Below are positions 4,754 through 20,515 of a stretch of 64,000 nt of DNA, piece by piece. Position numbers and translations under genes: made by a program. The number at the start of each line of letters is the position of its first letter. Within the stretch, counting starts at the first letter, position 1. Source of the DNA: Clostridiales bacterium (GTDB taxonomy: Bacteria > Bacillota > Clostridia > Christensenellales > UBA3700); the NCBI GenBank assembly GCA_015055975.1, contig SVHF01000004.1, positions 5,390 to 69,389 on the forward strand, written 5' to 3'. Below the pieces are notes generated by a model. The model saw only the letters and a program-made list of their open reading frames with translations. It made no database searches and was not told where the DNA came from.

Positions 4754-5038
4754 TTAAACTATTTCGTATATTTTAAGGGATTTATCAAATCTAGATTTAT
4801 TCAAAACATCCAAAAGTGCTAATTCTTTGCATCTTGATGCATGCTTTTCTAAGCACTCTTTGTTTTCCCATCTTTCAAAAAATACAATTTCTTTATCTTC
4901 TTCGTTATATTCTGAAATATCAAAAGCAATACAACCCTTGTCAACATCTTTAGACATTTTTGCATGTTCAATTGCTGCTTCCATAAATATTGGAACATCT
5001 TTTTCTTCTAATTTATTTGTACATACTACGTATATCAT
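4754..5038 (-). CDS. antibiotic-biosynthesis-monooxygenase (ABM) fold protein
   Basis: ORF trimmed to the ATG at 5038 with a GGGGTGA RBS. About 94 aa with a ferredoxin-like ABM pattern (FFERWENKECLEKH). Confidence 0.6.
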   Translation of the reverse strand: MIYVVCTNKLEEKDVPIFMEAAIEHAKMSKDVDKGCIAFDISEYNEEDKEIVFFERWENKECLEKHASRCKELALLDVLNKSRFDKSLKIYEIV

Positions 5039-5085
5039 AATTTCACCCCTTTTCAATAATACCATACTTTAAGTATAATAAGGCT

Positions 5086-5316
5086 ATGGAAGATTTAAAT
5101 AAACCACTGAACGAAGACGAAAAAGATTTAATTATTAATTGGTTCATCAAAAACGAAGGACCAAGCGGAGAATCGCAGATTAAAACTTTTAGATTAAGAG
5201 ATAAATTAGATAAATCTCCAAAGACTTCTCGTGAATTAATAGAAACAAATATTAAAGCAAATTCTTATAAGATAGATTCTATGAGCTTTTATATGCTACT
5301 TATGGCCCATATTTAA
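5086..5316 (+). CDS. hypothetical 76-aa protein
   Basis: An ORF only, with a weak RBS. It converges on, and overlaps by 4 nt, the end of the 1594-aa gene. Confidence 0.3.
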   Translation: MEDLNKPLNEDEKDLIINWFIKNEGPSGESQIKTFRLRDKLDKSPKTSRELIETNIKANSYKIDSMSFYMLLMAHI

Positions 5317-8300
5317 ATAGGCGTTGTTTTGTGTTCAACAAACTCAATTGTTCCCATTATCAATCTAATTGAATAATTCATCGTAACATCTTGATTATTA
5401 CTATCGATGATTTTCAATTCTTCTATTTCGTTATATGCAGGTTCTCCAATTGTTACTTGTATTTCCTTGAATGTACATTCTATGCGATCGCCATTTTGTA
5501 AATAACCTTGAGTTACATTTGCATATCTTCCAACTATTTCATCGCCAACAATTTGCTTAAACGAATTTGTTGTTATTGTTATAACTTTAGGATTTGTTTG
5601 CAAAGCGATGCCCTTTATAAATACAACATAATTATTTGTTACATCTTGATTTGAATAATTCTTTACTATCCAATGTGCGTTTTGCTCTAAATCTCTACCA
5701 TATACAATTCCAGCATTTAAAGTTTCCAATGTGTCAATTAATTCAACTCTATATACATTAGATGGCTTTGTTGCGGCAACTATTTCATAGTTGTAGTTAT
5801 AGTAATAATAATCAACCTCGTATTTTTGCCCATTATAACTTCTCGATGATGCATAAACCATCAATTCAATAATATCTTTGCTTGTAACTATAACTTCGCC
5901 TTTAGATGTTATGATGTTATATTTTTCTGTAACATCTTCGCCTTTTTTATTGAACAATCTAAACGACCGAATCTCACTTTCACTTGTTCCAACCTCTGTA
6001 CGCTTTCCATATACTTCACAAGAATATGTATATCCTTGGCTCAATAACATTTCAAATAAGCCATGTCCAGATTCTGTTTCAACTTCGTTTTTTGCAACCA
6101 ATTCTGTTCCGTTATATTTTGCATAAGTTCTTACAGGATGAATATACAAATTCTTCACACTATAATAATCTTTTATGCCAGCATGATTGCCAGGTACAAT
6201 TTCTCCTTCTCCTGCTTCGCCGCCTTCTCCCGATTCGCCGCCTTCACCGCCAGAACCACTGCCTGATCCGCCTGCACCGCCAGAGCCTCTACCATCTGGG
6301 GCTGTTACTTCTACCATAACCCAGCCAACGCCTTCAATATATACTTCTACCCATGCATGAAGATTCTTATCTGTAATTGTTGTAATTTTGTTTGCTTCAT
6401 CAATATATACATAAGCCCCGCCTATAAATCTTGCTGGGATTCCCAATGCTCTATAAAGCATTGTTGCGGCCGTTGCATAATGACGACAAACACCTTCTTT
6501 GTAATCTCTTAAGAATGCTATTACAACATCTGATTCTGAATCTAATGATTTATCATAATCCATGTTGTATTTAGCTGAGCTTTGAATGAACTTAGCAACT
6601 TTACTAATAATTGCTGGATCTTCTTTTGTAAATCCGTTTTCTACAATAATTGAATTCAAATATGTTTTTAATCTGCCTTCTTCTAGTGTTAAGAAGTTTG
6701 CGTTAACATAATCTCTATATATAACTTCGTTATTTGCTAAAACGCCTGTTAAATGATTGTCCAATCTTATTGCAACATCTGTTTGTGTAATAAAGTGACT
6801 AAAGCTATATCCATCAACAGATTGCTCTAAATCTATCAAATCACCATCCATTAAATGCTCTGTATCTGTTGATAGATAATAAGGTCTAAATGGCATGTAT
6901 GTAAATGAATTGATAATCATGCTATTTGCTTGAGCTTCAATATTCTTTAGGTTAGTACCTGTTATATATTCTTGTGTATGAGAACCATCTAACACAATTG
7001 ATTCAGGGTTTATGATATCAAAGACTCTGCCTTGATATTGACTATATGAATATGACTTCAAATAGAAAGCTCCAACCTCACTTGATTGTACAGCCGCTAT
7101 AATTAGTGGTTCATCGCCATATCCTTCACCTTCTCCACCGCCGCCGGCAGGGTCCACTACTGTCAATGTCCCGACTTCAAATGTAACAGTATAATAACTT
7201 GGGTTTGCAAAATAAGCTCTAACAACTGCGTGGTTTGGAGATTGACCTATATTTGTTCTTTGGCCAATAACTGTTACTTCAACTATGTCACCTTCAAATA
7301 CTGGATTTTCAAATACTGATGTATCCAATCTATAATGATCATATTTCAAAGGTTCGCCATCATATATCTTTTCTTTGCTTCCTGTTATAATCTTCAATAC
7401 TCTTGGAATTATTTTGATAGCGCTTTTTGCATATGTAATATTATATACATCTTTAACGCTAACATTATTTGCATCTAGTATATCTATGATTGAACTTATA
7501 GAACTTTCCGTTTCCCCAATTTCTGTTCGACTTCCGTCAATTGTTACATTTACAACATGATCTCCTTCTAATAAGCCTGAGCCCAAAATGTCAATATCTG
7601 TTGGTTTATGTTCTTGTTTATCAAATTGCGCTTCGACATATTGTGGAGAAATTACAATTGGTCGTTTGTTTATAACAAAATCTTCTTTATAATCTTCACC
7701 AAACACAAGGTTATAGCAATCTCTATTTGGGGTTATTGTATCGCCTGCATAGATATCAGCAGCTTGAATCCATGTTTTATATGTGCCAATATCTCTAAAT
7801 GAGCCATATACTTGAGACACTACAATTCGATCCTCTTGTGCCAATGACTTACCGTTTGTAATTTGATAATCCTTGCTTGGTTGATGATATTGTCTATCAT
7901 AAATTATTTCTTCATGAATAGGAGTAATAACGATTGTTTTAACATTGACTCTGACTTCAACTGGAGATAATGCATCAAGTCCTAAATCATAATTTGCCGT
8001 AAAGTCTTTAGTGTCATCAAATATTGATGAGATTCTTAGACTTATAATCTTTGATTGACACGCGCCAACTCTTGTTTGGTAGTTGTCAAATACAACATCT
8101 CGTAATATATGATCTGTACAAAGACCGCTTGTGCTAAATGCTGGGCTATGTTTAAGTCCATCATAATCTCCATTAAAACTTAAAAGCGATAGATTTAATG
8201 CTTTTTTATTAATAGTAAATGTTGCTTTTGAATATTCTTGAGGAACGATTATATTGTAATAGTCCTGATATACATAATATCTAGATCCGCCTGCTCTAAT

Positions 8301-10097
8301 TTCTAAGCCAACTCCAATATCGCTTATATCTGTTTGATATACACCAGCATCCGTTTTTGCATATAAATCTACAAACACTATATCGTTAGAATCTGGCAAC
8401 AATCTATTTGTGTCATATTCTATTTGAGGTATTTGTTCTTCTCCGTTATATGTAACGCTTGATGATAATACTCTAATTTCAATATCTCTTTTTGTAATTC
8501 TTAAGGTGCCAAAATCAGTTTCTGTTATTTCATAATATGGAACAGATTCATCTTTTAACCATGCCTCATTTGGGGCACTTACATCCCACCCATCAAGTAT
8601 TGTTGTATCTAATTGTGGAAATTTTGATGATGGTAAAGAATTTGTGTTTAGAGGCGTTGGTATTGCTCCACCTGTATACAAAGGCATTCCATCATATTCT
8701 TTTGTTTGAGATGAAGTTTTCACTTTAATGTTTATTTTGTCGATTTGTATCGTTCCAGGCTTTATTGTCAATAAATAATTGCCACTTATTGATCCGTTTT
8801 GTTGCTTTACATAGAAATTCAATGGATTATCATAAGTACCTGGTATTACATATCCTAGATTTGCATATTTAACTAGATAATCTCCGCCATATAAAGTGCC
8901 TGCTAATATTTCATAGCTATCTACAGCAAGCGCATTATTATCAAATACTTTAGAAGCTGACCCTGTCTTTATAATAATTTCTTGTTCTTCAACTTTTAAT
9001 TGGCCATAATTAACTGTTATAGAATAGTTGTTCAAATTAGTATTTGCATTAGCGCTCACTTGCATATAGTTATATGTTGTTCCAACATTTGTAATTGAAG
9101 CAAAATTGCTAAATATAAAACCTTCGCCACTTGGGATTAGAGATTCATCATACAAAACAGTTTCATTTGTTAAAGGTTGAGAATCATAAACTTTTGTAGC
9201 ATTTTTTGTTTTAAATTCAATATTTATCTTCGCTATATCAACATATCCAAAAGTAAATGTTGGATTGTAATATCTATAAGTTACATCTTCGCCATCTTTA
9301 TTAACGATTTTAGATTCTGAATTGTTTGTAAATCTGCCAGCCGTTAATCCAAATGACTTTGGAGTTACTACAACTTTGTCACCATATCCAAGTTTCCCAG
9401 AGGTTATTCTAGCTTTATCTAATACTTCTTCTTTACCATCATAGGTTTTTGATAAATCATCCGTTTTTATCGTTATGTTTTGCTTTGTATAATTAATTTG
9501 CTTACTTTCTACGATAATGTTATACGCGTTTTTAACGTCTTTTCCTTCGCTATTTAATATCTGTAGCGTGTCAAGATCAGGTGTCATATTGATTGTTTTA
9601 TCATCAATATAATCTACGTCATATTGTTCACAGATAAGTCTGTCTTTGAAAGATAATTCTGCATTCAAATAAATGCTATTTCCATAAACTATTGAATCGT
9701 TCTTTATTGTGATGTATAAGTCTTTTTTCTTAATAACCACTTTTGATGCTTTACTATATTCTTTTGCACCAAAAGATCTATTAGATACAGCTCTTATTTC
9801 ATATTCACCTGGTGTTTGAGGTAGACCTTCTTGCCATTGCCCATTTAATGTATGATATTCATAATTTGTCTTATTAAATATACTCTTTGCAAAAAATCCT
9901 ACATCTTCACCATATGTATATTCTGCCTTATTAAGTTCTACATCTGTAATTAGACCATTGATTCCTAAGAACACTGAAACAATTGTAAGAGCGACGATAA
10001 GGCATGCGATTATTAATAATCTATGTTTGATTATTGATGCTTTAATCGATGCTAGCGTTTCTAAACGCTTCTTATAAGAATCGTATGTCATTCCCAT
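5313..10097 (-). CDS. giant (1594 aa) membrane-anchored surface protein: repeat array, transglutaminase-like Cys-His-Asp core, Ig-like C-terminal stalk
   Basis: - One N-terminal TM helix.
- About 10 repeats with a K-x-YDG-x-PL-type signature (TKVYDSQPL, SKVFDNNAL, TKEYDGMPL, EKIYDGEPL).
- Transglutaminase core EGVCRHYATAATMLYRALGIPARF...NLHAWVEVY...GWVMVEVT.
- Gly/Ser/Glu linkers.
- TAATG overlap with the upstream gene. Confidence 0.85.
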   Translation of the reverse strand: MGMTYDSYKKRLETLASIKASIIKHRLLIIACLIVALTIVSVFLGINGLITDVELNKAEYTYGEDVGFFAKSIFNKTNYEYHTLNGQWQEGLPQTPGEYEIRAVSNRSFGAKEYSKASKVVIKKKDLYITIKNDSIVYGNSIYLNAELSFKDRLICEQYDVDYIDDKTINMTPDLDTLQILNSEGKDVKNAYNIIVESKQINYTKQNITIKTDDLSKTYDGKEEVLDKARITSGKLGYGDKVVVTPKSFGLTAGRFTNNSESKIVNKDGEDVTYRYYNPTFTFGYVDIAKINIEFKTKNATKVYDSQPLTNETVLYDESLIPSGEGFIFSNFASITNVGTTYNYMQVSANANTNLNNYSITVNYGQLKVEEQEIIIKTGSASKVFDNNALAVDSYEILAGTLYGGDYLVKYANLGYVIPGTYDNPLNFYVKQQNGSISGNYLLTIKPGTIQIDKINIKVKTSSQTKEYDGMPLYTGGAIPTPLNTNSLPSSKFPQLDTTILDGWDVSAPNEAWLKDESVPYYEITETDFGTLRITKRDIEIRVLSSSVTYNGEEQIPQIEYDTNRLLPDSNDIVFVDLYAKTDAGVYQTDISDIGVGLEIRAGGSRYYVYQDYYNIIVPQEYSKATFTINKKALNLSLLSFNGDYDGLKHSPAFSTSGLCTDHILRDVVFDNYQTRVGACQSKIISLRISSIFDDTKDFTANYDLGLDALSPVEVRVNVKTIVITPIHEEIIYDRQYHQPSKDYQITNGKSLAQEDRIVVSQVYGSFRDIGTYKTWIQAADIYAGDTITPNRDCYNLVFGEDYKEDFVINKRPIVISPQYVEAQFDKQEHKPTDIDILGSGLLEGDHVVNVTIDGSRTEIGETESSISSIIDILDANNVSVKDVYNITYAKSAIKIIPRVLKIITGSKEKIYDGEPLKYDHYRLDTSVFENPVFEGDIVEVTVIGQRTNIGQSPNHAVVRAYFANPSYYTVTFEVGTLTVVDPAGGGGEGEGYGDEPLIIAAVQSSEVGAFYLKSYSYSQYQGRVFDIINPESIVLDGSHTQEYITGTNLKNIEAQANSMIINSFTYMPFRPYYLSTDTEHLMDGDLIDLEQSVDGYSFSHFITQTDVAIRLDNHLTGVLANNEVIYRDYVNANFLTLEEGRLKTYLNSIIVENGFTKEDPAIISKVAKFIQSSAKYNMDYDKSLDSESDVVIAFLRDYKEGVCRHYATAATMLYRALGIPARFIGGAYVYIDEANKITTITDKNLHAWVEVYIEGVGWVMVEVTAPDGRGSGGAGGSGSGSGGEGGESGEGGEAGEGEIVPGNHAGIKDYYSVKNLYIHPVRTYAKYNGTELVAKNEVETESGHGLFEMLLSQGYTYSCEVYGKRTEVGTSESEIRSFRLFNKKGEDVTEKYNIITSKGEVIVTSKDIIELMVYASSRSYNGQKYEVDYYYYNYNYEIVAATKPSNVYRVELIDTLETLNAGIVYGRDLEQNAHWIVKNYSNQDVTNNYVVFIKGIALQTNPKVITITTNSFKQIVGDEIVGRYANVTQGYLQNGDRIECTFKEIQVTIGEPAYNEIEELKIIDSNNQDVTMNYSIRLIMGTIEFVEHKTTPI

Positions 10098-12271
10098 TAA
10101 TACACTCTCAATGTTCCAGAATATGTCGTGATATTAAAGTTTGCAGTAATATCATTTCCATCTGAATCTTTTATTATTACGTTTTGTATATAATTTTCAG
10201 CCACACCCTTGTTTGTCAATATCGCTGGCATTTCTACTTCAACATCAAGACCTAAAATTTCCGTATCAATTGAATATTCATGACACTCAAGTGGTTCTCC
10301 ATTATATGCTTTTTGTGCAGATCCTGCCGTTATATACATATAAGCTCTATCGATAGTAATAACCCCGAAGTTATAATCTATCTCATAGTTTTGTGTGACA
10401 TCTTTGCCGTTTCTTGTAACTGTTACTAGATAATAATTAACGTATGTTCCAGCATTTTTAAATGTTGAGAAATCTAATGTAAATACATCGTTTGAGTTCC
10501 TTGCGCCAGAAATTGTGTAGTCATCAAAGGTGTATTCTTCATTTGTGTATTCAACCAGCTTGCTTGAACTTGAAATGCTTATTAAATATTCATAAACATG
10601 TAAATAGCCAAATTTTGATTCATCTATACCATATTGATCAGTTACGTCTTTTCCTGTGTTATCTTCAATTATTGGATAAATCATATTCTTGACATATCCA
10701 TATTCTGTAATTGTTCCAACGTAATCATATCCAACAACTGAGTGGAATGATTGTAAATCGCCTAAAACTTGAACTGACGTTCCTTTACCTGTTAGAGGAG
10801 TTCCATCACCTTTTTTAGATTTGTTTTCTGTAACAATGGTAAGTTCCGTCCAAACCTGTTTAAATAATCCATCCCCTAATGAAAAATCGAATCTTGATGT
10901 TATATCTACATCATTTTCATCAAATATTCTAAATTCTTGTATTTTAGTTGCACCTGCACTTCCAAGTGCTGTTTCTTCAGAATTATGGTATTGGAAAGTT
11001 ATATAACTTCCATTTTTTTGTGCATATCCATAGACTTTTGCTGTGTAATAATAGCCTTTTTCGTATATTTGCTCAATAGTAGTTCCGCTCAAGAATCCAC
11101 CATTTCTAGAATCAAGTAAGACTCCTTCAACTTTTGTGTTTAAAGGATAATAATAACCATCCGCGCCATCTCTTGGCACATATGAATCAAATGGCACTAT
11201 TTCATTTGTTTGCTTTTGTTTATCATCGCTTTTGTTTGGAGTTGTCATTGTAGGATCTATTGGGACCCAGCCAACTCCATCTACATATACTTCAACCCAG
11301 GCATGCGCATCACCACCTGTTACTTCCACTTCTACATTTGCAGCTACTTCTGCACAATATCCTTCAACTCTTCTTGCAGGAATACCTAAAGTTCTATATA
11401 GCAACACAGCCGATGATGCAAAGTGTTGACAAATACCTTCTTTATATTTAGTTAAAAAGGCAACTATAACATCGCTTTCTTTGTTCATTGCAGGATTGAA
11501 GTTTAGATTATATTCTGCTTGATTTGATATATATGTACTGACTTTTTTATATATTCCATCTGTATTTTTTGACCAACCTTGCTCACGAATTATTTGTCTC
11601 ATAAGCGTTATTGTTGATTCAGGAACGTTAATATAGTTTGCATAAACAAATTCTCTATAGGCTTGTTCTTCTTGAACATGCTCTGTTCTTGAAGAAGACC
11701 CATATAAGGCTTTTAGCGAATCTGCAGTAAACTTTCCTGCTCCATAATATTTCATAGCGTATGTATCACTTACTGAACCAATAGATTCTATATCGCTCTT
11801 TTGAATAGATTTAGCTTCACTATTTATTGAATGATAATATGGGACTAAATAATCTTTTCTAACAGGCGTAATTGTCATGTCATATTCACTTGCGCCATGT
11901 AAAGAACAATATATTGAAGTTAGATAGTCCATTGAATATTGACCATCTAATAATCCATCATATTTTTTAGGTGTTCTCCATTTGTTATTTAAAATATCTC
12001 CAAAAGCAAAGCTCTTTAAATAAATAAGACCATTTGATGTAGCTGTTACTCTATAGGCAACGGATTCATCTTTTTCTGCTCCATTTATATCATTGAATTC
12101 GCCAGATCTATCTAATGCGTCAATTAAATCGTTGGCGCCAGCTTTTTTTGTACCTTCGCCAAAATTAACAAAGAAGCGAATCATAAATCCTGCAAGAAGT
12201 ATGATAAGTAGTATAACTACTGCACCATAAATACTTATTAGATTATTATTCCCCTTCTTTTGTTTTTCCAT
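10097..12271 (-). CDS. membrane-anchored transglutaminase-like protein (724 aa) with C-terminal Ig-like repeats
   Basis: N-terminal TM helix. Core EGICQHFASSAVLLYRTLGIPARR...DAHAWVEVYVDGVGWVPIDPT. The pre-core region is paralogous to residues ~960-1260 of the 1594-aa protein. Confidence 0.85.
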   Translation of the reverse strand: MEKQKKGNNNLISIYGAVVILLIILLAGFMIRFFVNFGEGTKKAGANDLIDALDRSGEFNDINGAEKDESVAYRVTATSNGLIYLKSFAFGDILNNKWRTPKKYDGLLDGQYSMDYLTSIYCSLHGASEYDMTITPVRKDYLVPYYHSINSEAKSIQKSDIESIGSVSDTYAMKYYGAGKFTADSLKALYGSSSRTEHVQEEQAYREFVYANYINVPESTITLMRQIIREQGWSKNTDGIYKKVSTYISNQAEYNLNFNPAMNKESDVIVAFLTKYKEGICQHFASSAVLLYRTLGIPARRVEGYCAEVAANVEVEVTGGDAHAWVEVYVDGVGWVPIDPTMTTPNKSDDKQKQTNEIVPFDSYVPRDGADGYYYPLNTKVEGVLLDSRNGGFLSGTTIEQIYEKGYYYTAKVYGYAQKNGSYITFQYHNSEETALGSAGATKIQEFRIFDENDVDITSRFDFSLGDGLFKQVWTELTIVTENKSKKGDGTPLTGKGTSVQVLGDLQSFHSVVGYDYVGTITEYGYVKNMIYPIIEDNTGKDVTDQYGIDESKFGYLHVYEYLISISSSSKLVEYTNEEYTFDDYTISGARNSNDVFTLDFSTFKNAGTYVNYYLVTVTRNGKDVTQNYEIDYNFGVITIDRAYMYITAGSAQKAYNGEPLECHEYSIDTEILGLDVEVEMPAILTNKGVAENYIQNVIIKDSDGNDITANFNITTYSGTLRVY

Positions 12272-13356
12272 TATGCGTTATTAACAATGTTTCTAATGTA
12301 TTGCTTGCATCTTGGCATTGCTTCGTCTCCAAATAGCTCGTTTAATTTGTCTACTAACCCATCTGCTCCATTTTTTACATAGATTGGGTTCTTCATCTCT
12401 AACTTTCTTAATATCTTCTTAGATAACATATCATCTAGCGCATCTAACTCTTCTCCACCACATCCTATATAGATTGGTACATACTTGTTTATTTGCATCA
12501 TTATTCTGTTACCAAATGTAACTTGGAAATGCTTCGTTAGATAATCGTCTAATTCCTTTAACTTTGCTTTGTTTCTCTCTGTTAGAGAATTTTCTTGTTG
12601 TGCATTAGATATTAATCTATCGAAATCCTTTGCACTTAAATGTATGTTTTGTGTGTTTTGTCCTTTAAATGGTTCACACTTGTTATCTAAGTTCAATATC
12701 ATGGCTCTATCGTATACCTTGTCGGATATAGCAAATGTAGAATCATCGTTGTTTGCTGTTCCAATAAACCACATGTTTGTTGGTAATTGAATTTGTCCAT
12801 CTTTTAGATTGCTTGGGTCTGTTCCCCATTTGTCTGAAACTACTTCCATGAATCTTTCATCTGATCTTGGCAATTCCAATAAAGATAAGAATTCAGCAAA
12901 ATAATATTCAACTCTTGCAATGTTCATTTCATCTAACACAGTTATATAGATATCTTCTGAATAATTTGCTTCATACATCTTCTTTAGAAGTGCTGTTTCA
13001 TTAAAGTGCTTTGTGAATTCATTGTAGTATCCAATTAAGTCTGTTCTTTCCTTCCACATAGGTTGAATTGGTATAACTGTTGATGGATTCTCTACAAATC
13101 TTCCAAATGCATATGCAAGTGATGTCTTACCCGTACCACTCATACCTTGAAGTATCATGATGTGTGAAACTCCAAGTCCTGCTATGAATGCTCTTATGTC
13201 TTCTTCTCTATAGAACAAGCCTAATTCATTTGCTGCATAGTTTCTAAAATCATCGCAAAACATCTTTAAGGTGATGTTGTTTATGTAATCTTCTTTTGAA
13301 TACGTATCCTTCTTTTTGTCTATTTGCTTTAAAATACTAAACCTTGTGTCTGTTGT
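12269..13356. repeat. copy 1 of a 1,088-bp direct repeat (partner at 15209-16296)
   Basis: A line-by-line comparison at an offset of 2,940 nt finds only two differences (12307 G vs A, 13342 C vs T). Confidence 0.95.
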
Positions 13357-13668
13357 TATCTTCTTTGGATTTAAAGTAGATTGAGGAACACCTATTTCTC
13401 CGTGTCTTCTTTCATATCTATAAATTAGATTGCTTTGTTTTCTAACTTTCTTATATACGACAATGATTAAAATAGCTAAGAAAATTGGAACGCCAATAAG
13501 CATTGCAATTAGATATGCAAAGTCTATTATGTTTTGATCGATGATATATTGTTTAATCTCGTCCATTTTGGCAACTAAAACAACTTCTAAAACGAAAACC
13601 AAAATCGCAATGATTATTGCAATGATAAGGACTAACTTAATTGGGTCAAATTGCTTACTTTTCTTCAT
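12271..13668 (-). CDS. membrane-anchored AAA+ ATPase, McrB/MoxR-like (paralog 1)
   Basis: - Start trimmed to the ATG at 13668, with a GGGGAGAAG RBS.
- Two N-terminal TM helices.
- Walker A GMSGTGKT and Walker B VLDEMNIARVEYYFAEFLSLLE.
- FIGTANNDDSTFAISDKVYDRA, which matches the McrB-type layout. Confidence 0.8.
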   Translation of the reverse strand: MKKSKQFDPIKLVLIIAIIIAILVFVLEVVLVAKMDEIKQYIIDQNIIDFAYLIAMLIGVPIFLAILIIVVYKKVRKQSNLIYRYERRHGEIGVPQSTLNPKKITTDTRFSILKQIDKKKDTYSKEDYINNITLKMFCDDFRNYAANELGLFYREEDIRAFIAGLGVSHIMILQGMSGTGKTSLAYAFGRFVENPSTVIPIQPMWKERTDLIGYYNEFTKHFNETALLKKMYEANYSEDIYITVLDEMNIARVEYYFAEFLSLLELPRSDERFMEVVSDKWGTDPSNLKDGQIQLPTNMWFIGTANNDDSTFAISDKVYDRAMILNLDNKCEPFKGQNTQNIHLSAKDFDRLISNAQQENSLTERNKAKLKELDDYLTKHFQVTFGNRIMMQINKYVPIYIGCGGEELDALDDMLSKKILRKLEMKNPIYVKNGADGLVDKLNELFGDEAMPRCKQYIRNIVNNA

Positions 13669-15211
13669 CTTTCTTCTCCCCAAATAGTATTTCTTTCTTT
13701 AGACGCTTTTTAGTCTTCTTCCAAGCCATCTTATAGTAGTCGCCAACTATTTTGTATTCCTTCTCTATTAACTTAAACTTATCTTCGTCTGTATAATCCT
13801 TTTCTTTCACAGCTAATCCAAGCTTTGTTCTAAAAGCATTGTTTTGAGTCATCAATTGATCTTTTTCTTTAGTATTTTCTTCAAGCTTTTGATTTAGCGA
13901 TGCAATATTTTCTTCAAGCTCTTGAATCTTGCTTTCTAAATCTTCCTTTTCGAATGTCATTACATCAATTTCATCTGCGTGTGCTTTGTCTTTTTTAGCC
14001 ATTGATTCAAGATATTCTCTTTCTTTAGCTTTAGCCCCATCTTTTAAACTTACAATCTCGCCCTTTAGAGAATCTATCTTTTCTGTTTGTTTTGCAGCTA
14101 AACTATTTGCAGACTTTAGAGCAACTTCTTTTGCTTCTAATTGCTCAATTCTTTCATTTAGTGAAACTAAATATTCATCAAGGCTCTTTCCGCTTAGTTT
14201 TGCCTTGCTCTTTAGGTATTCAAGTCTTTCTTTTAATTCTTCTGCTCTTTGCTCTTCTTCAAGCTTTAATTGCTTTTCAAGCTCTAATTGCAATCCTTCT
14301 TTTAAATCTAACGAGTGCATTTGCATCATAAATAACAATAAAAGCACTGCGTTATTTATATCGTCTTCTGCGCTTGCATCTAATTGCTTTTCAAAAGCTT
14401 CTCTTGTTATGGTGTATCCTGGTGCTGTATATGATGAGATATATTCATATAAAGCTAGTGCATATTTAAAGTTTGTTTCCATCTTTAAGACATTTGTCTT
14501 TGTGATTGGTGGCTTTATCATAGGCACTTTTGAAACTTCAACCATGAGTGGCGTAGATAGCAATTTCAAAATAGCATTTAAAACATCTTCAATTCTTTCA
14601 ACAACTTTTGCATTGTCGCTATCTTTAGATAAAGACATGTTCTCATCTTCAATGTTTAGTGTATATTTGATATTTCTTTGCTTTGTCTTATATGTCGATG
14701 CAACATCTAAAACTGTATAGTACTTTCCAGATGATTGAGTGATTTTGTTATATCTTTCTGTTGTGAAGTCTCTAAGATAAGTTAAAAGAAGATATAGGAA
14801 TCTATTTTCATAAACTGCATAATCACTTAGCTTTTCAACTGTATAAATCTTTTCTGGTTTTACTTGATCAGTTTCTTCGTCAACTTCCTTAATTAAAGAT
14901 GCATGCTTTGCTAAATGGCTAATTGATTCTTTAGAAATGCTCTTAGTCTTTTCAATTAATACTACTTCCCCATTAGTTCTAATGAATTGTCTTTCTTGAG
15001 AAATTGCCTTTTCAATGTATTTTAGATTATTCTCAATTTCACTTATCCAATCTTCACTAACTTCGCATTTAACCTTTTCAATTGTTAATCTTGCCTTCTT
15101 ATTTGATCCAAGCGTTCTAATTTGGCGTAGAAAATCTTGGATGCCCTTATCTGAAAGCGCAATTTTCTTATATTCTATAAACGCTCTATAGTAATAATCG
15201 TTTGTCTTCAT
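13655..15211 (-). CDS. 518-aa protein: globular N-terminal domain plus a long K/E/L-rich coiled coil
   Basis: The ORF sits between the two AAA+ paralogs, with overlapping start and stop codons on both sides. The N-terminal domain contains AVYENRFLYLLLTYLRDF. The C-terminal ~200 aa are heptad-like. Confidence 0.75.
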   Translation of the reverse strand: MKTNDYYYRAFIEYKKIALSDKGIQDFLRQIRTLGSNKKARLTIEKVKCEVSEDWISEIENNLKYIEKAISQERQFIRTNGEVVLIEKTKSISKESISHLAKHASLIKEVDEETDQVKPEKIYTVEKLSDYAVYENRFLYLLLTYLRDFTTERYNKITQSSGKYYTVLDVASTYKTKQRNIKYTLNIEDENMSLSKDSDNAKVVERIEDVLNAILKLLSTPLMVEVSKVPMIKPPITKTNVLKMETNFKYALALYEYISSYTAPGYTITREAFEKQLDASAEDDINNAVLLLLFMMQMHSLDLKEGLQLELEKQLKLEEEQRAEELKERLEYLKSKAKLSGKSLDEYLVSLNERIEQLEAKEVALKSANSLAAKQTEKIDSLKGEIVSLKDGAKAKEREYLESMAKKDKAHADEIDVMTFEKEDLESKIQELEENIASLNQKLEENTKEKDQLMTQNNAFRTKLGLAVKEKDYTDEDKFKLIEKEYKIVGDYYKMAWKKTKKRLKKEILFGEKKDEEK

Positions 15212-16296
15212 TATGCGTTATTAACAATGTTTCTAATGTATTGCTTACATCTTGGCATTGCTTCGTCTCCAAATAGCTCGTTTAATTTGTCTACTAACCC
15301 ATCTGCTCCATTTTTTACATAGATTGGGTTCTTCATCTCTAACTTTCTTAATATCTTCTTAGATAACATATCATCTAGCGCATCTAACTCTTCTCCACCA
15401 CATCCTATATAGATTGGTACATACTTGTTTATTTGCATCATTATTCTGTTACCAAATGTAACTTGGAAATGCTTCGTTAGATAATCGTCTAATTCCTTTA
15501 ACTTTGCTTTGTTTCTCTCTGTTAGAGAATTTTCTTGTTGTGCATTAGATATTAATCTATCGAAATCCTTTGCACTTAAATGTATGTTTTGTGTGTTTTG
15601 TCCTTTAAATGGTTCACACTTGTTATCTAAGTTCAATATCATGGCTCTATCGTATACCTTGTCGGATATAGCAAATGTAGAATCATCGTTGTTTGCTGTT
15701 CCAATAAACCACATGTTTGTTGGTAATTGAATTTGTCCATCTTTTAGATTGCTTGGGTCTGTTCCCCATTTGTCTGAAACTACTTCCATGAATCTTTCAT
15801 CTGATCTTGGCAATTCCAATAAAGATAAGAATTCAGCAAAATAATATTCAACTCTTGCAATGTTCATTTCATCTAACACAGTTATATAGATATCTTCTGA
15901 ATAATTTGCTTCATACATCTTCTTTAGAAGTGCTGTTTCATTAAAGTGCTTTGTGAATTCATTGTAGTATCCAATTAAGTCTGTTCTTTCCTTCCACATA
16001 GGTTGAATTGGTATAACTGTTGATGGATTCTCTACAAATCTTCCAAATGCATATGCAAGTGATGTCTTACCCGTACCACTCATACCTTGAAGTATCATGA
16101 TGTGTGAAACTCCAAGTCCTGCTATGAATGCTCTTATGTCTTCTTCTCTATAGAACAAGCCTAATTCATTTGCTGCATAGTTTCTAAAATCATCGCAAAA
16201 CATCTTTAAGGTGATGTTGTTTATGTAATCTTCTTTTGAATACGTATCCTTCTTTTTGTCTATTTGCTTTAAAATACTAAATCTTGTGTCTGTTGT
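15209..16296. repeat. copy 2 of the 1,088-bp direct repeat (partner at 12269-13356)
   Basis: See copy 1. The two copies are about 99.8% identical. Confidence 0.95.
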
Positions 16297-16506
16297 AACT
16301 TTCTTTTCCTTTCCTTTAGCTAATGCTTTATCTGGTTCGAATTCAACAGCTATTTGAGATACGCTCTTTAAGTCTTTATTTTGTCTTGATTGAACAATAA
16401 GCAAAATAACCATTATTGTTATGAACGCAATAATTAACGTTGAATAAATAATAATTGCATATGTTGAAGTCAAGACGTTGACTAATATTTCTAAAAAATT
16501 ATCCAT
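15211..16506 (-). CDS. membrane-anchored AAA+ ATPase, McrB/MoxR-like (paralog 2)
   Basis: 431 aa with a GGAGG RBS. It has one N-terminal TM helix that differs from paralog 1. From TTDTRFSILKQ to the C-terminus the protein is identical to paralog 1. Confidence 0.8.
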   Translation of the reverse strand: MDNFLEILVNVLTSTYAIIIYSTLIIAFITIMVILLIVQSRQNKDLKSVSQIAVEFEPDKALAKGKEKKVTTDTRFSILKQIDKKKDTYSKEDYINNITLKMFCDDFRNYAANELGLFYREEDIRAFIAGLGVSHIMILQGMSGTGKTSLAYAFGRFVENPSTVIPIQPMWKERTDLIGYYNEFTKHFNETALLKKMYEANYSEDIYITVLDEMNIARVEYYFAEFLSLLELPRSDERFMEVVSDKWGTDPSNLKDGQIQLPTNMWFIGTANNDDSTFAISDKVYDRAMILNLDNKCEPFKGQNTQNIHLSAKDFDRLISNAQQENSLTERNKAKLKELDDYLTKHFQVTFGNRIMMQINKYVPIYIGCGGEELDALDDMLSKKILRKLEMKNPIYVKNGADGLVDKLNELFGDEAMPRCKQYIRNIVNNA

Positions 16507-17854
16507 CTATTTCCTCCAACTCTTCATTATCTATTTCATCGACTGGCGCATCTTCAACCTTGTCTTTGACTACTTCTTGTTCTTCATATACATAATCCAT
16601 TAAGACATTTGCTAAAGTTTCATTCTTGTTGCCAATCAATTGCTTTAACTTCTTTGTTGCATCCTTGTCTTTAGAGCTACTAATAATTGGGGCAATTAAT
16701 GGTAATATTCTTTGAGCTATAACAAGATTCTTAAATTCTGAAGAATCTATTCCAAATGAACCTAATAGTGTTATGTATCTTTCAATTTCGACATATTCTT
16801 TATTTGTAAGCTTACAATCGTTTTGAATTGCCATTAAGCTATCTATCGCTTTCCAATCTTCTTCGCTTAGCTTATATGAACCTTTCATAGAATCGATTCT
16901 ATATAAATAGTCATAAACAGCATCGCATGCTGGCAATTGCAAATCTGTTGATGTTGTCTTGCTAAAGGCAATATCTAAAATTGTTGATGCTCTTCTTAAT
17001 TCTTGTGAATAAGTCTTAACTGTTTCTAAGTTCTCAACAGCAACAAATACAATGTGAGATGGCACCATCAATGATTGGTGTCTGTATTTCAATTCAATAT
17101 CGTTGTATCTAATATTTAATACTGGAATTGCGTTTGCTAATATTTCTTGTTTTTCTGCGCTGAAATTCTTTAGAAGAATAATTCTCAATTCTTCTATTCC
17201 TAATTCTTGTTCTAATGCTTTAACTAAAGATTCAACATTGCTTATATCAACAAAATCTAATTCTTTAACTTCTAAAGATAGTGCAGTTAATGCTTTTATG
17301 GCTTTTGATCCTAAAGCAATATCTGATGTATTTATGGTAATGAATTTATTTGCAAATATTGAAGAAATAATATTGATTGCATCCTTTTCCTCAACTGCAA
17401 CGCCATTTGCTTTTAGACTAGAGATATAAGTATCTTTAATTTGGCTAAATTCAACATAATTTTTGATGATTACTGCATTCTTTCTTTCTCTCTTTGAAAC
17501 ATTAAATGCTGAATCAAAGAATTCATCAATTGCTTTTGAATTGCTCTTTTGGGCAAATCTTGATGTTGTAATTTCTATTTGTGCAATCTTATCTTTTGAA
17601 TGCTTTGCTACCTTTTTCCTCAACGCATGCGCTCCACATGCAAATACCATGAATAATATAAAACTTACAACAGCTAGAATTAAACAAGTAAATGCCCAAA
17701 CTGTAGATAAATCACCCTTTCCTGTTGCTAATTTGTCTATAGTTGGGATAAATAAAAATCCAAGTCCTGCAGCTAATAAGATAAATAAAGCTATCTTCCA
17801 ACCTTTATCGTAAGTTTTTAGAGGTGATCTTCTATAAGAAACATATGCTTTCAT
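16499..17854 (-). CDS. hypothetical membrane protein (451 aa; 2 N-terminal TM helices, cytoplasmic body, acidic tail)
   Basis: AGGAGG RBS and an 8-nt overlap with the downstream AAA+ gene. I recognise no motif. Confidence 0.7.
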   Translation of the reverse strand: MKAYVSYRRSPLKTYDKGWKIALFILLAAGLGFLFIPTIDKLATGKGDLSTVWAFTCLILAVVSFILFMVFACGAHALRKKVAKHSKDKIAQIEITTSRFAQKSNSKAIDEFFDSAFNVSKRERKNAVIIKNYVEFSQIKDTYISSLKANGVAVEEKDAINIISSIFANKFITINTSDIALGSKAIKALTALSLEVKELDFVDISNVESLVKALEQELGIEELRIILLKNFSAEKQEILANAIPVLNIRYNDIELKYRHQSLMVPSHIVFVAVENLETVKTYSQELRRASTILDIAFSKTTSTDLQLPACDAVYDYLYRIDSMKGSYKLSEEDWKAIDSLMAIQNDCKLTNKEYVEIERYITLLGSFGIDSSEFKNLVIAQRILPLIAPIISSSKDKDATKKLKQLIGNKNETLANVLMDYVYEEQEVVKDKVEDAPVDEIDNEELEEIDG

Positions 17855-17866
17855 ACTTTATACCTC

Positions 17867-18880
17867 CTATTTAACTAAAGAATCATAATCAATTCTTTGC
17901 CCTTCATAATAGAAGGTGATGTTGCTTGGGTATTGGAACGCACCTTTTTCTATAGTAGGTTTGCTATGCACAAATCTTACTTCTGTAATTCCTGTACAAC
18001 CAAGGAACGCATTTGCTGCAATCTTCTTTGCATTGTAGATTTGCACATATTTTAAATTTGCACAACTCTCTACTGTGTTTGCTTTAATTTTGCTTGTATC
18101 TAATATTATTGATTGCAAATTGCTGCAACTTTCTATTGCTTTGCTTTCAATATTTTTTGCTTCTATATCCAAACTATATAAAGTTCTTGCGTTATAGAAT
18201 GCTAAAGACTCAACTTTATCTAAGTTATAGATTCTAACCGTTGGCACATTAGAATTACTAAATGCTTCCGATTTAATTCCTTTAATCTTAGTTGCCGAAT
18301 TCGTAAAATCTAAACCTCCGCTAACATATGAAGCAACTTTCTTTATATACAACTTTCCAACTGAAACTTCTTGAAGAGTTACTCCTTGATAATAAGCAGA
18401 TTCACCAGTGTTATTCCCTATCCAAATTTCAGTTTGTTGATAGAATGGTAAATAGATAGAGTATATTGCCCCCGTTATAACTAAAAGTAATATTGCAAAC
18501 ACTCCAACAACTGCCCACATTTTATTTGAAGAATCATGGACTTTAGCTGAACTTGCTTTCTTTGTTTTTAATTCTTTAACATTTTGAACATCTATTTGTT
18601 CGCAATTTGGATCAACGCTAATAATTTTTGATTTTCCAAAAGTCTCTCCTGTTTTTGCATATTGGCCTTCAACTGTTACTTGCTTTGTTTCTATAACATT
18701 ACCTGTTGAATCTTTTACGACAAGTGAGTATGAAACGCCATATACAGGGGTTTGTAATCCGTTTCTAAATTCTACTAAAACTTCTTTTTTGTCATCTTCT
18801 GTATAGATAACATATCTTGTTGCACAAAGGGTTTTAGGATTCGCGTTAAGCACGCAGGCTTTATAAATAATCTTAGCCAT
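17867..18880 (-). CDS. single-pass membrane protein with an extracellular BspA-type leucine-rich repeat domain
   Basis: 337 aa with a central TM helix (MWAVVGVFAILLLVITGAIY). The C-terminal repeats have the form xAFxxCxNLxxI (ESLAFYNARTLYSL, SKAIESCSNLQSI, ANAFLGCTGITEV). Confidence 0.75.
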   Translation of the reverse strand: MAKIIYKACVLNANPKTLCATRYVIYTEDDKKEVLVEFRNGLQTPVYGVSYSLVVKDSTGNVIETKQVTVEGQYAKTGETFGKSKIISVDPNCEQIDVQNVKELKTKKASSAKVHDSSNKMWAVVGVFAILLLVITGAIYSIYLPFYQQTEIWIGNNTGESAYYQGVTLQEVSVGKLYIKKVASYVSGGLDFTNSATKIKGIKSEAFSNSNVPTVRIYNLDKVESLAFYNARTLYSLDIEAKNIESKAIESCSNLQSIILDTSKIKANTVESCANLKYVQIYNAKKIAANAFLGCTGITEVRFVHSKPTIEKGAFQYPSNITFYYEGQRIDYDSLVK

Positions 18881-19628
18881 TCTTCTTTACCCCCTTTTGT
18901 TGCTTATATTTAATCTTTGGACAAAATGTTATTTTTGTAAAAGCCCACATAATTCCAACGCAGGCAAAATATGAAAGTATTGGGACTACTAGCGCCGCTA
19001 TGCTATATGTTAGTTCATAATTCTTATTCCACAAAACCATAAAAGATGAATCACTACCATATATTCCAAGAGCTAAAAACCCAATAGTCGTTAATGCAGC
19101 TGGAAGCATAGTTAAAGAAGCTACAAATGAATATGATGTAATTTGCTTTTTTGCAATGCTGTGCTCGTTAATTTTTACATCGTCTACATTTAAAACTTTG
19201 ATTTGAATTGCTTTCGTTCTTTCAGATAAACGAATTAAATCTAATTCATTATTAGATACTTCTCTTTGTGTGACTATAATTGTCTTAAATGGTTCAAAAC
19301 CTTCTTCTTTTTCATCAAACATTGTAACTTCGTAAACAATACGTTCAACTTTTGTTGCCAATATTGCTCTTAAATAGCAATTGATTCCCTTTGTCATTAC
19401 AACGGCTTTGTTGATGTACTTTTGAGATAATTCATCATTTACTTGGAAAATCATGACCCTTCCATCTACACTTCTGTCGTCTTTAATCATAGTATCTGGA
19501 TCTTTAAACACTTTCTTATTCATGAAGAACTTCTTTGGGTATACGAAAAAGTTTAATGAAAGCATAACTATGAATAATGCGGCAAATAGACCGACGAAAT
19601 AGTCTATTTCAATAAGATCAAATAACAT
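18873..19628 (-). CDS. hypothetical membrane protein (251 aa; TM, ~130-aa soluble domain, 2-3 TM), first gene of the operon
   Basis: GAGAGGGA RBS. A ~190-bp promoter-bearing intergenic region lies upstream. Confidence 0.7.
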   Translation of the reverse strand: MLFDLIEIDYFVGLFAALFIVMLSLNFFVYPKKFFMNKKVFKDPDTMIKDDRSVDGRVMIFQVNDELSQKYINKAVVMTKGINCYLRAILATKVERIVYEVTMFDEKEEGFEPFKTIIVTQREVSNNELDLIRLSERTKAIQIKVLNVDDVKINEHSIAKKQITSYSFVASLTMLPAALTTIGFLALGIYGSDSSFMVLWNKNYELTYSIAALVVPILSYFACVGIMWAFTKITFCPKIKYKQQKGVKKNG

Positions 19629-19730
19629 TAGTCCCTCTCTTTTTTAATATAGTTAGTTCGTTAGTTTTTCATTGATTGCGAATATTTTAATTGCCGTGCT
19701 TTCTAGATAAGCTTGCGCTCGCATTTTTCT

Positions 19731-19759
19731 ATTATAGATAAAAATAGGGGCGCGCGCAA
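19731..19759 (-). promoter_or_regulatory. candidate sigma70 promoter of the 8-gene operon (TTGCGC, 17-nt spacer, TATAAT)
   Basis: Hexamers at 19759-19754 and 19736-19731 on the minus strand, about 100 nt upstream of the first ATG. Confidence 0.45.
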
Positions 19760-19819
19760 TATAATATATCACAACGCTTCCCCTATATACTAAACACTCA
19801 TGTTTAAAATAAACAAAAA

Positions 19820-20515
19820 TTACAATAATTTTTCAATATCTTTGAATAATACCTCATCAAAAGGCTCTAAATTGTCTTTATCTCTTACAATATTTCCTGT
19901 TAAATAGAACTTTATTCCAAGTTCTCTTGCAGCTTTTCCGTCTTCTTTTTCAGAATTTCCAAAATATATAACTTCATCTTCTTTTAAATCAAGTTTGTCT
20001 AGAACTTCTTTTATGAACATCTTATTTGGCTTTGCGTAATGTGCTGTTTCATAGCATGAAATATAATCAAAAGACTTAGGATCTATTCCTGTAAATCCAA
20101 TTCTTGTTAACATCCCTACCATTGGGAAAACTGGGTTTGCTACAAGCACAATCTTATCTACTTTCTTCTTTATTGAATCAATGATTTTTTGTGCATTTTC
20201 ATGAGGCGCATCGCAAAATTGAATTGCTTTTTTAAACTCCGTTGCATAAAAGTCATGGAACCCTTTGTGTAAGGCTTCTTTGTCTTTATCTGGAAATAAC
20301 GATGAAAACGCATTCCAAAAAGCTTCTTCGCAAGTCAATTTTCCATCGTTTTTTCTCATTGCATCCGTGCCTATCCAAATAGCTTTTACAAATTCGTCCT
20401 TATCAAAATTAAATGGGGCCATAAACTTGTAAAGATATCCAAAATAACCTTTAACGAATTTGTCTTCATCCATTGGCAAAAGTGTGCCATCCAAATCAAA
20501 TAATACCGCCTTCAT
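19820..20515 (-). CDS. HAD-superfamily hydrolase
   Basis: 231 aa. Motif I is AVLFDLDGTLL. The later motifs are consistent with the HAD family. Confidence 0.8.
   Translation of the reverse strand: MKAVLFDLDGTLLPMDEDKFVKGYFGYLYKFMAPFNFDKDEFVKAIWIGTDAMRKNDGKLTCEEAFWNAFSSLFPDKDKEALHKGFHDFYATEFKKAIQFCDAPHENAQKIIDSIKKKVDKIVLVANPVFPMVGMLTRIGFTGIDPKSFDYISCYETAHYAKPNKMFIKEVLDKLDLKEDEVIYFGNSEKEDGKAARELGIKFYLTGNIVRDKDNLEPFDEVLFKDIEKLL

Follow-up and report, generated by a model that had tools for sequence, protein, structure and literature searches.

Near-identical motor parts on unlike membrane anchors in two McrB-like AAA+ paralogues of a Clostridia operon: a case for recurrent gene conversion

Introduction

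How do two genes of one operon come to encode cytoplasmic motors that are the same to the last residue while their membrane anchors are unrelated? The question is raised by a 64,000-nucleotide (nt) stretch of a Clostridiales bacterium genome (GenBank assembly GCA_015055975.1, contig SVHF01000004.1, positions 5,390 to 69,389 of the forward strand), called the window below. Its minus strand carries an operon in which two genes for McrB-like AAA+ ATPases, here named U (upstream) and D (downstream), flank a gene for a coiled-coil protein with a DUF2357 domain, the family of the McrC N-terminal domain. U and D share a direct repeat of 1,088 nt. The first-pass annotation of the window, made from the sequence alone, had noted the repeat and offered two origins for it, recent duplication or gene conversion that homogenises only the motor domain, with assembly collapse or mis-join as a technical alternative. 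From a comparison with related loci we conclude that the motor parts of U and D are very probably old paralogues that have been kept near-identical by recurrent gene conversion.

Results

The repeat spans the whole motor part of both genes

Direct comparison of positions 12269-13356 with positions 15209-16296 (an offset of 2,940 nt) showed that 1,086 of the 1,088 bases are the same, the only mismatches being 12307/15247 (G/A) and 13342/16282 (C/T). The U and D proteins are identical over their last 362 residues and thus both nucleotide differences are silent, in agreement with the first reading of the sequence. These 362 codons are the entire cytoplasmic part of both genes. The G + C content of the repeat (33%) equals that of the window, and beyond both repeat edges the sequences of the two copies are unrelated.

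At its 3' end the repeat takes in the stop codon and also the ATG with which the following gene overlaps it (context TAATG at both copies), a feature that had also been described correctly. Ahead of their start codons, the DUF2357 gene and the 724-residue transglutaminase gene have the same 40 nt except for a single nucleotide (segments 12269-12310 and 15209-15250). As the repeat includes both these nucleotides and the stop/start overlap, the two genes have the same translation-initiation context. No Shine-Dalgarno motif was found before the start of either gene, which suggests that both probably rely on translational coupling to the preceding ATPase gene.

The 5' boundary had been placed exactly where the ATPase domain meets a divergent N-terminal membrane region. 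The anchors indeed differ, but the boundary itself lies in a linker about 30 residues past the last transmembrane helix. The U protein has a hydrophobic run at residues 11-38 and its repeat boundary at residue 70, and the D protein (numbered from the ATG at 13668) has its second transmembrane helix at about residues 50-72 and its boundary at residue 104. The repeat stands alone in the operon, as had been claimed, since no further long repeat was found within 10-19 kb. A promoter and terminator scan of positions 4800-20200 returned fewer promoter-like sites than were present in shuffled sequences and nothing informative within the repeat.

The two-gene layout is older than the species that carry it

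The sister species G005 has the same eight-gene layout, with a repeat of 1,117 nt that is 100% identical within its genome. Between the window and G005 identity is 87% in the repeat and 62-77% in those neighbouring genes that could be aligned. The anchors align by position in the operon, with alignment scores of 247 for D against D and 159 for U against U compared with about 40 for U against D. Judged by these scores the U and D anchors are orthologous by position across species, which places the two-gene arrangement before the species split and the homogenisation of the motors later, within each lineage. Moreover, a short linker insertion is present in both G005 paralogues and in neither window copy.

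Sampling was widened to two metagenome contigs, representatives of nine further species of the same order and 21 loci of the genome collection, which gave a total of 33 loci having the order U, DUF2357, D, transglutaminase. All of the sampled twin loci come from metagenome-assembled genomes (MAGs) of gut Clostridia that have not been cultured and are titled, for example, Christensenellaceae, Borkfalkiaceae or Oscillospiraceae, and the G + C content of the 33 loci ranges from 32 to 63%. A one-helix U anchor and a two-helix D anchor are found in 33 of 33. The repeat is at least 99% identical in eight of the 13 twin loci of the first set and 92.5-100% identical in the further 21 twin loci. When the last 1,005 nt were compared, the twins were mutually nearest in 28 of 32 genomes with nucleotide identities of 92.3-100%, and in these genomes the best copy from any other genome was 69-90% identical. 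The remaining loci (G272, G303, G108, G341 and G180) have twins of 59-69% nucleotide identity that group by position (the identities were computed for four of these loci, and G180 was placed by tree and BLAST). In maximum-likelihood trees every homogenised pair clusters by genome. Comparison with orthologous loci had been proposed as the check that would separate conversion from recent duplication; twins proved to be alike within genomes, which favours conversion.

Silent sites, mosaic tracts and a related strain

Synonymous divergence (dS) between the window twins is 0.005, compared with 0.55-0.82 between the closest species pairs. Mosaic structure was seen in pairs from relatives. The L085 twins have 17 differences, all within the first 290 nt, followed by 844 identical nt. 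The L061 twins are 93.9% identical and contain an identical run of 194 nt, and the L083 twins are 92.5% identical and contain one of 155 nt. Runs of 194, 155 and 844 nt were reached in none of 5,000 permutations (p < 0.0002). Note that this test applies to the pairs of relatives, as the window pair has just two differences.

A contig from a related strain (97.5% identical) joins the DUF2357 gene to the transglutaminase gene by way of the D anchor and a complete D repeat. The D repeat of this strain differs from window D at 28 of 1,098 sites, compared with the two sites that separate window U and D, and it has the U allele at both of those sites. The two differences in the window are therefore strain-specific, and the allele pattern indicates that homogenisation has been active since strains at about 2.5% divergence split.

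The drifted twins L061, L083 and L079 together have 144 synonymous and 13 non-synonymous differences (ratio of non-synonymous to synonymous divergence, dN/dS, 0.01-0.025 at dS 0.09-0.45), compared with 168 synonymous and 59 non-synonymous differences in orthologue pairs of similar divergence (Fisher p = 8.5e-6). From few pairs and different time scales, this gives a hint that protein differences between twins may be disfavoured beyond ordinary constraint, which would fit U and D working together in a single assembly.

Weighing an assembly effect and other explanations

Several points weigh against recurrent conversion or limit how strictly the identity of the twins can be taken. No conversion event has been directly observed, and both copy number and interior identity in the window genome rest on the assembly. 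The genome consists of 42 contigs; 54 of the 84 contig ends overlap other ends exactly by at least 77 nt and 12 more do so by at least 55 nt (an overlap length of 77 nt passed and the next length tested, 99 nt, failed). It is a short-read de Bruijn graph assembly with k=77, in which one graph edge supplies every copy of an exact repeat that exceeds the insert size. Graph data of this kind cannot span the 1,034-nt exact repeat and hence the contig traverses one graph edge twice, so the exact 1,034-nt interior may be a single collapsed edge that was written out twice. The two differences are found 39 and 15 nt from the repeat edges, within the 77 nt over which the graph can still separate the copies, and likewise in all eight near-identical loci of the first set the differences are confined to roughly the first 110 nt from the 5' boundary or the 40 nt next to the 3' end. 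The figure of 99.8% is an upper bound, since reasoning on graph assemblers allows that sparse interior differences of up to about 1% were merged. A collapsed form of the same locus is seen in G420, where the main contig (L087) reads from U straight into the transglutaminase gene, whereas the DUF2357 gene and the D anchor lie on a separate 2,663-nt contig (C20, L117), each end of which shares exactly 55 nt with the main contig at a repeat boundary. Furthermore, about 19 of 49 loci with a single copy have their match no more than about 100 nt from a locus end, and several of these are contigs that stop at the repeat. That the two copies are real and their near-perfect identity was made entirely by the assembler, one edge being used twice and bubbles popped, with a true difference greater than 0.2%, is thus a minority possibility to be taken seriously. 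However, collapse should hide just sparse differences of about 1% or less, as denser ones form parallel paths, and the assemblies of relatives did retain interior mismatches (25 scattered ones in L079, 68 in L061 and 79-83 in L083). The conclusion is unaffected by such a collapse because even a twin identity of 99% far exceeds the 87% found between sister species. The technical alternative of the first-pass annotation therefore holds in one respect, as exact interior identity may stem from the k=77 graph, and fails in the other, as the two-copy arrangement is real.

The other explanations fare worse. Were the locus mis-joined, the genome would contain a single motor gene, with an artefact or a separate molecule behind the second copy or the loop. 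The graph behind A-R-B-R-C also permits a path A-R-C together with a circle B-R, and A-R-C, with U running directly into the transglutaminase gene and no DUF2357 gene, is what is seen at four loci (L076, L080, L084 and L087). Yet the diverged-twin loci, which are not collapsible, have the same gene order, the related-strain contig described above leads from the DUF2357 gene through D to the transglutaminase gene, and the loop missing from G420 exists as a contig with matching 55-nt ends, all of which makes a phantom copy highly unlikely. A duplication of the motor part that took place recently and independently in this lineage, the copies being alike because they are young, would account for the near-perfect identity and for the lack of other duplications in the operon. 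We consider it very improbable, since it would require at least 28 independent events at the same boundaries and runs counter to the shared U/DUF2357/D layout with its one-helix and two-helix anchors across 33 loci of such different G + C content, to the orthology of the anchors between species and to the five loci with old, diverged twins. Of the two origins first offered, conversion stands, on the orthologous anchors and on 28 of 32 loci, and recent duplication does not, the layout being older than the lineages. Lastly, purifying selection could by itself keep the motors identical without exchange of sequence, and the motor is strongly constrained (dN/dS of 0.05-0.075 between orthologues). 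This is scarcely credible: synonymous sites are as alike as the rest, and the contrast between twin dS and that between species excludes selection alone; indels are common to the paralogues within a species and not to orthologues; and mosaic tracts are present.

The first-pass annotation had also pointed to the repeat as a recombination substrate that could delete or amplify the intervening gene, which is plausible. The candidate deletion products were the four loci lacking the DUF2357 gene; in the one testable case (G420) the deletion was an assembler shortcut, with the missing piece on a separate contig. No DUF2357 homologue was found in the bin for two of the four loci, which is uninformative for MAGs.

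Direction and history of homogenisation

In the unrooted tree diverged D, diverged U and all of the homogenised pairs form three groups that are joined at one node. With midpoint rooting the tree reads as an old D-type motor overwritten by the U type. Rooting with outgroups of the CoCoPALM type (see Discussion) puts the root among the homogenised pairs (support 84/80, on a long branch), with diverged U and diverged D as each other's sister clade (97/95). Note that two of the four outgroups used (G009 and G031) are wrongly extracted open reading frames with a branch length of 10 and are to be ignored. On the outgroup rooting homogenisation is ancestral and stopped once, and escape in one lineage is at least as likely as replacement of the D type.

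The operon types are not in step with the species grouping, in that G359 belongs to the same genus as G272 and G303 and yet has a homogenised pair, and therefore transfer or differential loss of operon lineages is likely. A further twin locus (L110, 33% G + C) was found in a MAG titled 'uncultured Anaeroplasma sp.' The pattern formed by G359, G272 and G303 and by L110 suggests transfer, differential loss, or errors of binning or labelling.

Family assignment of the motor and its partner

The shared motor matches Pfam AAA_5 with 28.6 bits (cut-off 22) and contains a Walker A motif (GMSGTGKTS), a Walker B motif (ITVLDEMN) and the signature GTANNDDS. Its best solved relatives are structures of E. 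coli McrB (E of about 1e-4; PDB 6hz4, 6ut6 and 7vsr). Walker A, Walker B and the Asn/Asp signature are in register with McrB 6hz4, the NTAD of which is aligned to NNDD. The motor lies outside the McrB equivalog, as NCBIfam NF008457 gave 24 bits against a cut-off of 637. By the positive-inside rule the U and D motors would both face the cytoplasm.

In the 518-residue partner protein the DUF2357 match covers residues 58-186. Two points limit the McrC-like assignment of this protein: the Pfam match on which the assignment rests is just over threshold (23.8 bits compared with 23.3), and an AlphaFold model of the first 330 residues (pLDDT, the predicted local distance difference test score, 76.8) had no PDB match at E < 0.1 in Foldseek. 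The fold search, made on a predicted model, speaks neither for nor against a relation to McrC. No nuclease domain was detected in the protein by Pfam or by PDB fold search of the first-330-residue model. Its C-terminal segment of about 220 residues is rich in Glu and Lys and heptad-like by eye, and the model of the first 330 residues finishes in long helices (H279-300 and H304-329).

Gene content of the operon

On the minus strand the gene order is the 251-residue protein, the LRR_5 protein, the 451-residue protein, U, the DUF2357 gene, D, and then the 724- and 1,594-residue transglutaminase-core proteins (Table 1). The open frame of D extends to a TTG at 13683. The ATG at 13668 is preceded by a GGGGAG ribosome-binding site and is most likely the start, and a 465-residue form of the protein is present in databases (99% identity over 99% of the query). 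An exact-sequence look-up of the U protein gave no match. The 451-residue protein aligns with a 427-residue orthologue and with the C-terminal parts of upstream proteins of 1,000-1,350 residues at other loci. These intermediates match the ATPase profile (E values down to 4e-26), and the P-loop is not conserved in the 451-residue protein, which by this transitive homology is probably a degenerate third McrB-like paralogue.

Table 1 Features of the operon and of its internal repeat (window coordinates)
Feature	Positions	Strand	Remarks
251-residue membrane protein, first gene of the operon, no family match	18873..19628	-	
337-residue membrane protein with BspA-type LRR_5 repeats	17867..18880	-	
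451-residue membrane-anchored protein, probably a degenerate third McrB-like paralogue	16499..17854	-	transitive homology only
U gene, McrB-like AAA+, 431 residues	15211..16506	-	Walker A 16060-16086, Walker B 15862-15885, NNDD 15679-15702
U-specific anchor outside the repeat, one hydrophobic helix (residues 11-38) and linker	16297..16506	-	
Repeat copy in the U gene (upstream)	15209..16296	-	last 362 codons, stop and overlapping ATG of the DUF2357 gene
518-residue protein, DUF2357 (McrC N-terminal domain) then long coiled coil, between U and D	13655..15211	-	
D gene, McrB-like AAA+ (AAA_5), 465 residues	12271..13668	-	Walker A 13120-13146, Walker B 12922-12945, NNDD 12739-12762
D-specific anchor outside the repeat, basic N-terminus, two hydrophobic helices and linker	13357..13668	-	
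Repeat copy in the D gene (downstream)	12269..13356	-	last 362 codons, stop and overlapping ATG of the 724-residue transglutaminase gene
Silent difference 1	12307	-	D TGC, U TGT (15247), Cys; 39 nt from repeat edge
Silent difference 2	13342	-	D AGG, U AGA (16282), Arg; 15 nt from repeat edge
724-residue transglutaminase-core protein, start codon within the repeat	10097..12271	-	
1,594-residue transglutaminase-core surface protein, last gene of the operon	5313..10097	-	

Homologues of the operon are common, as the first protein search returned at least 8,000 candidates, all with E <= 1e-20. Layouts other than that of the window were also encountered. As assembled, L057, L065 and L035 (G043) have U and the DUF2357 gene but no D before the transglutaminase genes, and L099 has the DUF2357 gene and D but no U between a large upstream protein and DUF2357.

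Discussion

In the mechanism we propose, one motor part would be repeatedly copied onto the other by intrachromosomal homologous recombination without crossover, presumably of the RecA type. The exchange would take place between direct repeats that lie 2.9 kb apart in the same orientation and flank the McrC-like coiled-coil gene. Its tract would be bounded by homology, which begins in the linker that follows each anchor and ends at the overlap of the stop codon with the start codon of the adjoining gene. With exchange so confined, the anchors would stay different and the 362 codons would stay identical, synonymous sites included. High identity would keep the pair a good recombination substrate, giving a self-sustaining state, and divergence would shut exchange off. 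The state seems to have broken down in one operon lineage, that of the five diverged loci.

The tufA and tufB genes of enterobacteria are an example of concerted evolution of paralogues. Long-lasting concerted evolution of prokaryotic paralogues has been reported for 26 genes (Commun Biol 2018, PMC6053082), and two mtrA copies inside the mtr operon also evolve in concert (PMC4632066). The present family resembles these cases in that the paralogues are older than the species, near-identical within genomes and diverged between them, across many lineages; as in mtrA, one operon contains both copies, which have just part of the gene in common. It differs from them in being a family of membrane-anchored McrB-like AAA+ proteins (the words 'ATPase' and 'McrB' are absent from the main text of PMC6053082), in having a domain-limited tract with sharp ends at non-homologous anchors and at the start codon of the next gene, and in including one operon lineage that escaped homogenisation, which supplies an internal contrast. 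Literature searches combining McrB with transglutaminase or with gene conversion gave nothing relevant, and no paper describing this operon was found in the literature searched. Hence the process is already known, and the gene family and the domain-limited tract are the new case.

Few cases of long-lasting concerted evolution between protein-coding paralogues are documented in bacteria, and the operon provides a clean, domain-limited one with dozens of independent replicates plus an internal control. It could serve to determine how fast conversion proceeds, how long its tracts are and at what level of divergence it fails. There is also a practical side: when these uncultured gut Clostridia are assembled from short reads, the repeat is a systematic cause of breaks and shortcuts. 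Some contigs stop there and others leave out the McrC-like gene, and calls of operon gene content in MAG catalogues are therefore unreliable.

E. coli McrBC and the window proteins share the Walker A, Walker B and Asn/Asp signature of the motor and a partner that carries the McrC N-terminal domain family. In contrast, the window proteins have membrane anchors where McrB has its DNA-binding N-domain, no PD-(D/E)xK nuclease was detected in the DUF2357 partner, and the operon neighbours are surface proteins rather than defence genes. The closest named relatives of the operon are the CoCoPALM systems, which are mentioned but not analysed in Bell et al. 2024, eLife (PMC11090510, section 7). Both have a McrB-like GTPase with a transmembrane N-terminus and a McrC homologue (DUF2357) with a coiled coil and without a nuclease; in both the neighbours are envelope or surface proteins, and the signature can be read as NxD followed by D. 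The window operon differs in having two GTPase genes plus a probable degenerate third, and two giant transglutaminase-core proteins in place of pilus-type genes (no signal-peptidase or pilus-assembly gene was found in the operon by Pfam). It may differ further with regard to an FtsB-like coiled coil on the GTPases: U and D have transmembrane helices, and by eye, with no coiled-coil predictor or FtsB profile used, no coiled coil was noticed between anchor and motor.

By analogy with the McrBC structures (6hz4 and 6ut6), the motors would form cytoplasmic McrB-type GTPase rings that are entered and stimulated by the DUF2357 domain. Speculatively, such a machine would serve the giant surface proteins encoded next to it (transglutaminase-core and LRR) rather than act on nucleic acids or in restriction. 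We put forward tentatively, and as an unlikely proposal in its full form, that U and D need the same motor because they form a hexameric ring of both proteins, or a pair of rings linked by the coiled-coil McrC-like protein, held by two kinds of membrane anchor. Selection would then add to conversion, and the diverged lineage would mark a switch between homo-oligomeric and hetero-oligomeric forms of a new nuclease-free, McrBC-derived envelope machine for giant transglutaminase-core surface proteins. As read from its domains, the widespread operon would be an instance of a restriction-type motor that lost its nuclease and is now membrane-bound.

A third homologue of the motor, 48% identical, is encoded on another contig of the same genome (C34, locus L034, 1-11125), which carries a second, diverged system of the CoCoPALM type. 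The GTPase of this system has 515 residues and a heptad-like stretch following its transmembrane region. The contig also encodes a DUF2357 coiled-coil protein (538 residues), an LRR_5 protein, an EAL-domain protein and several small proteins that are secreted, together with two proteins that by eye are signal-peptidase-like, one of which matches S26 weakly (E 0.0086, short of the cut-off). Finally, the PADLOC candidate defence family PDC-M26A matches the motor (E 2e-43, for the protein encoded at 12271-13683 of the window), which is a lead and not a classification.

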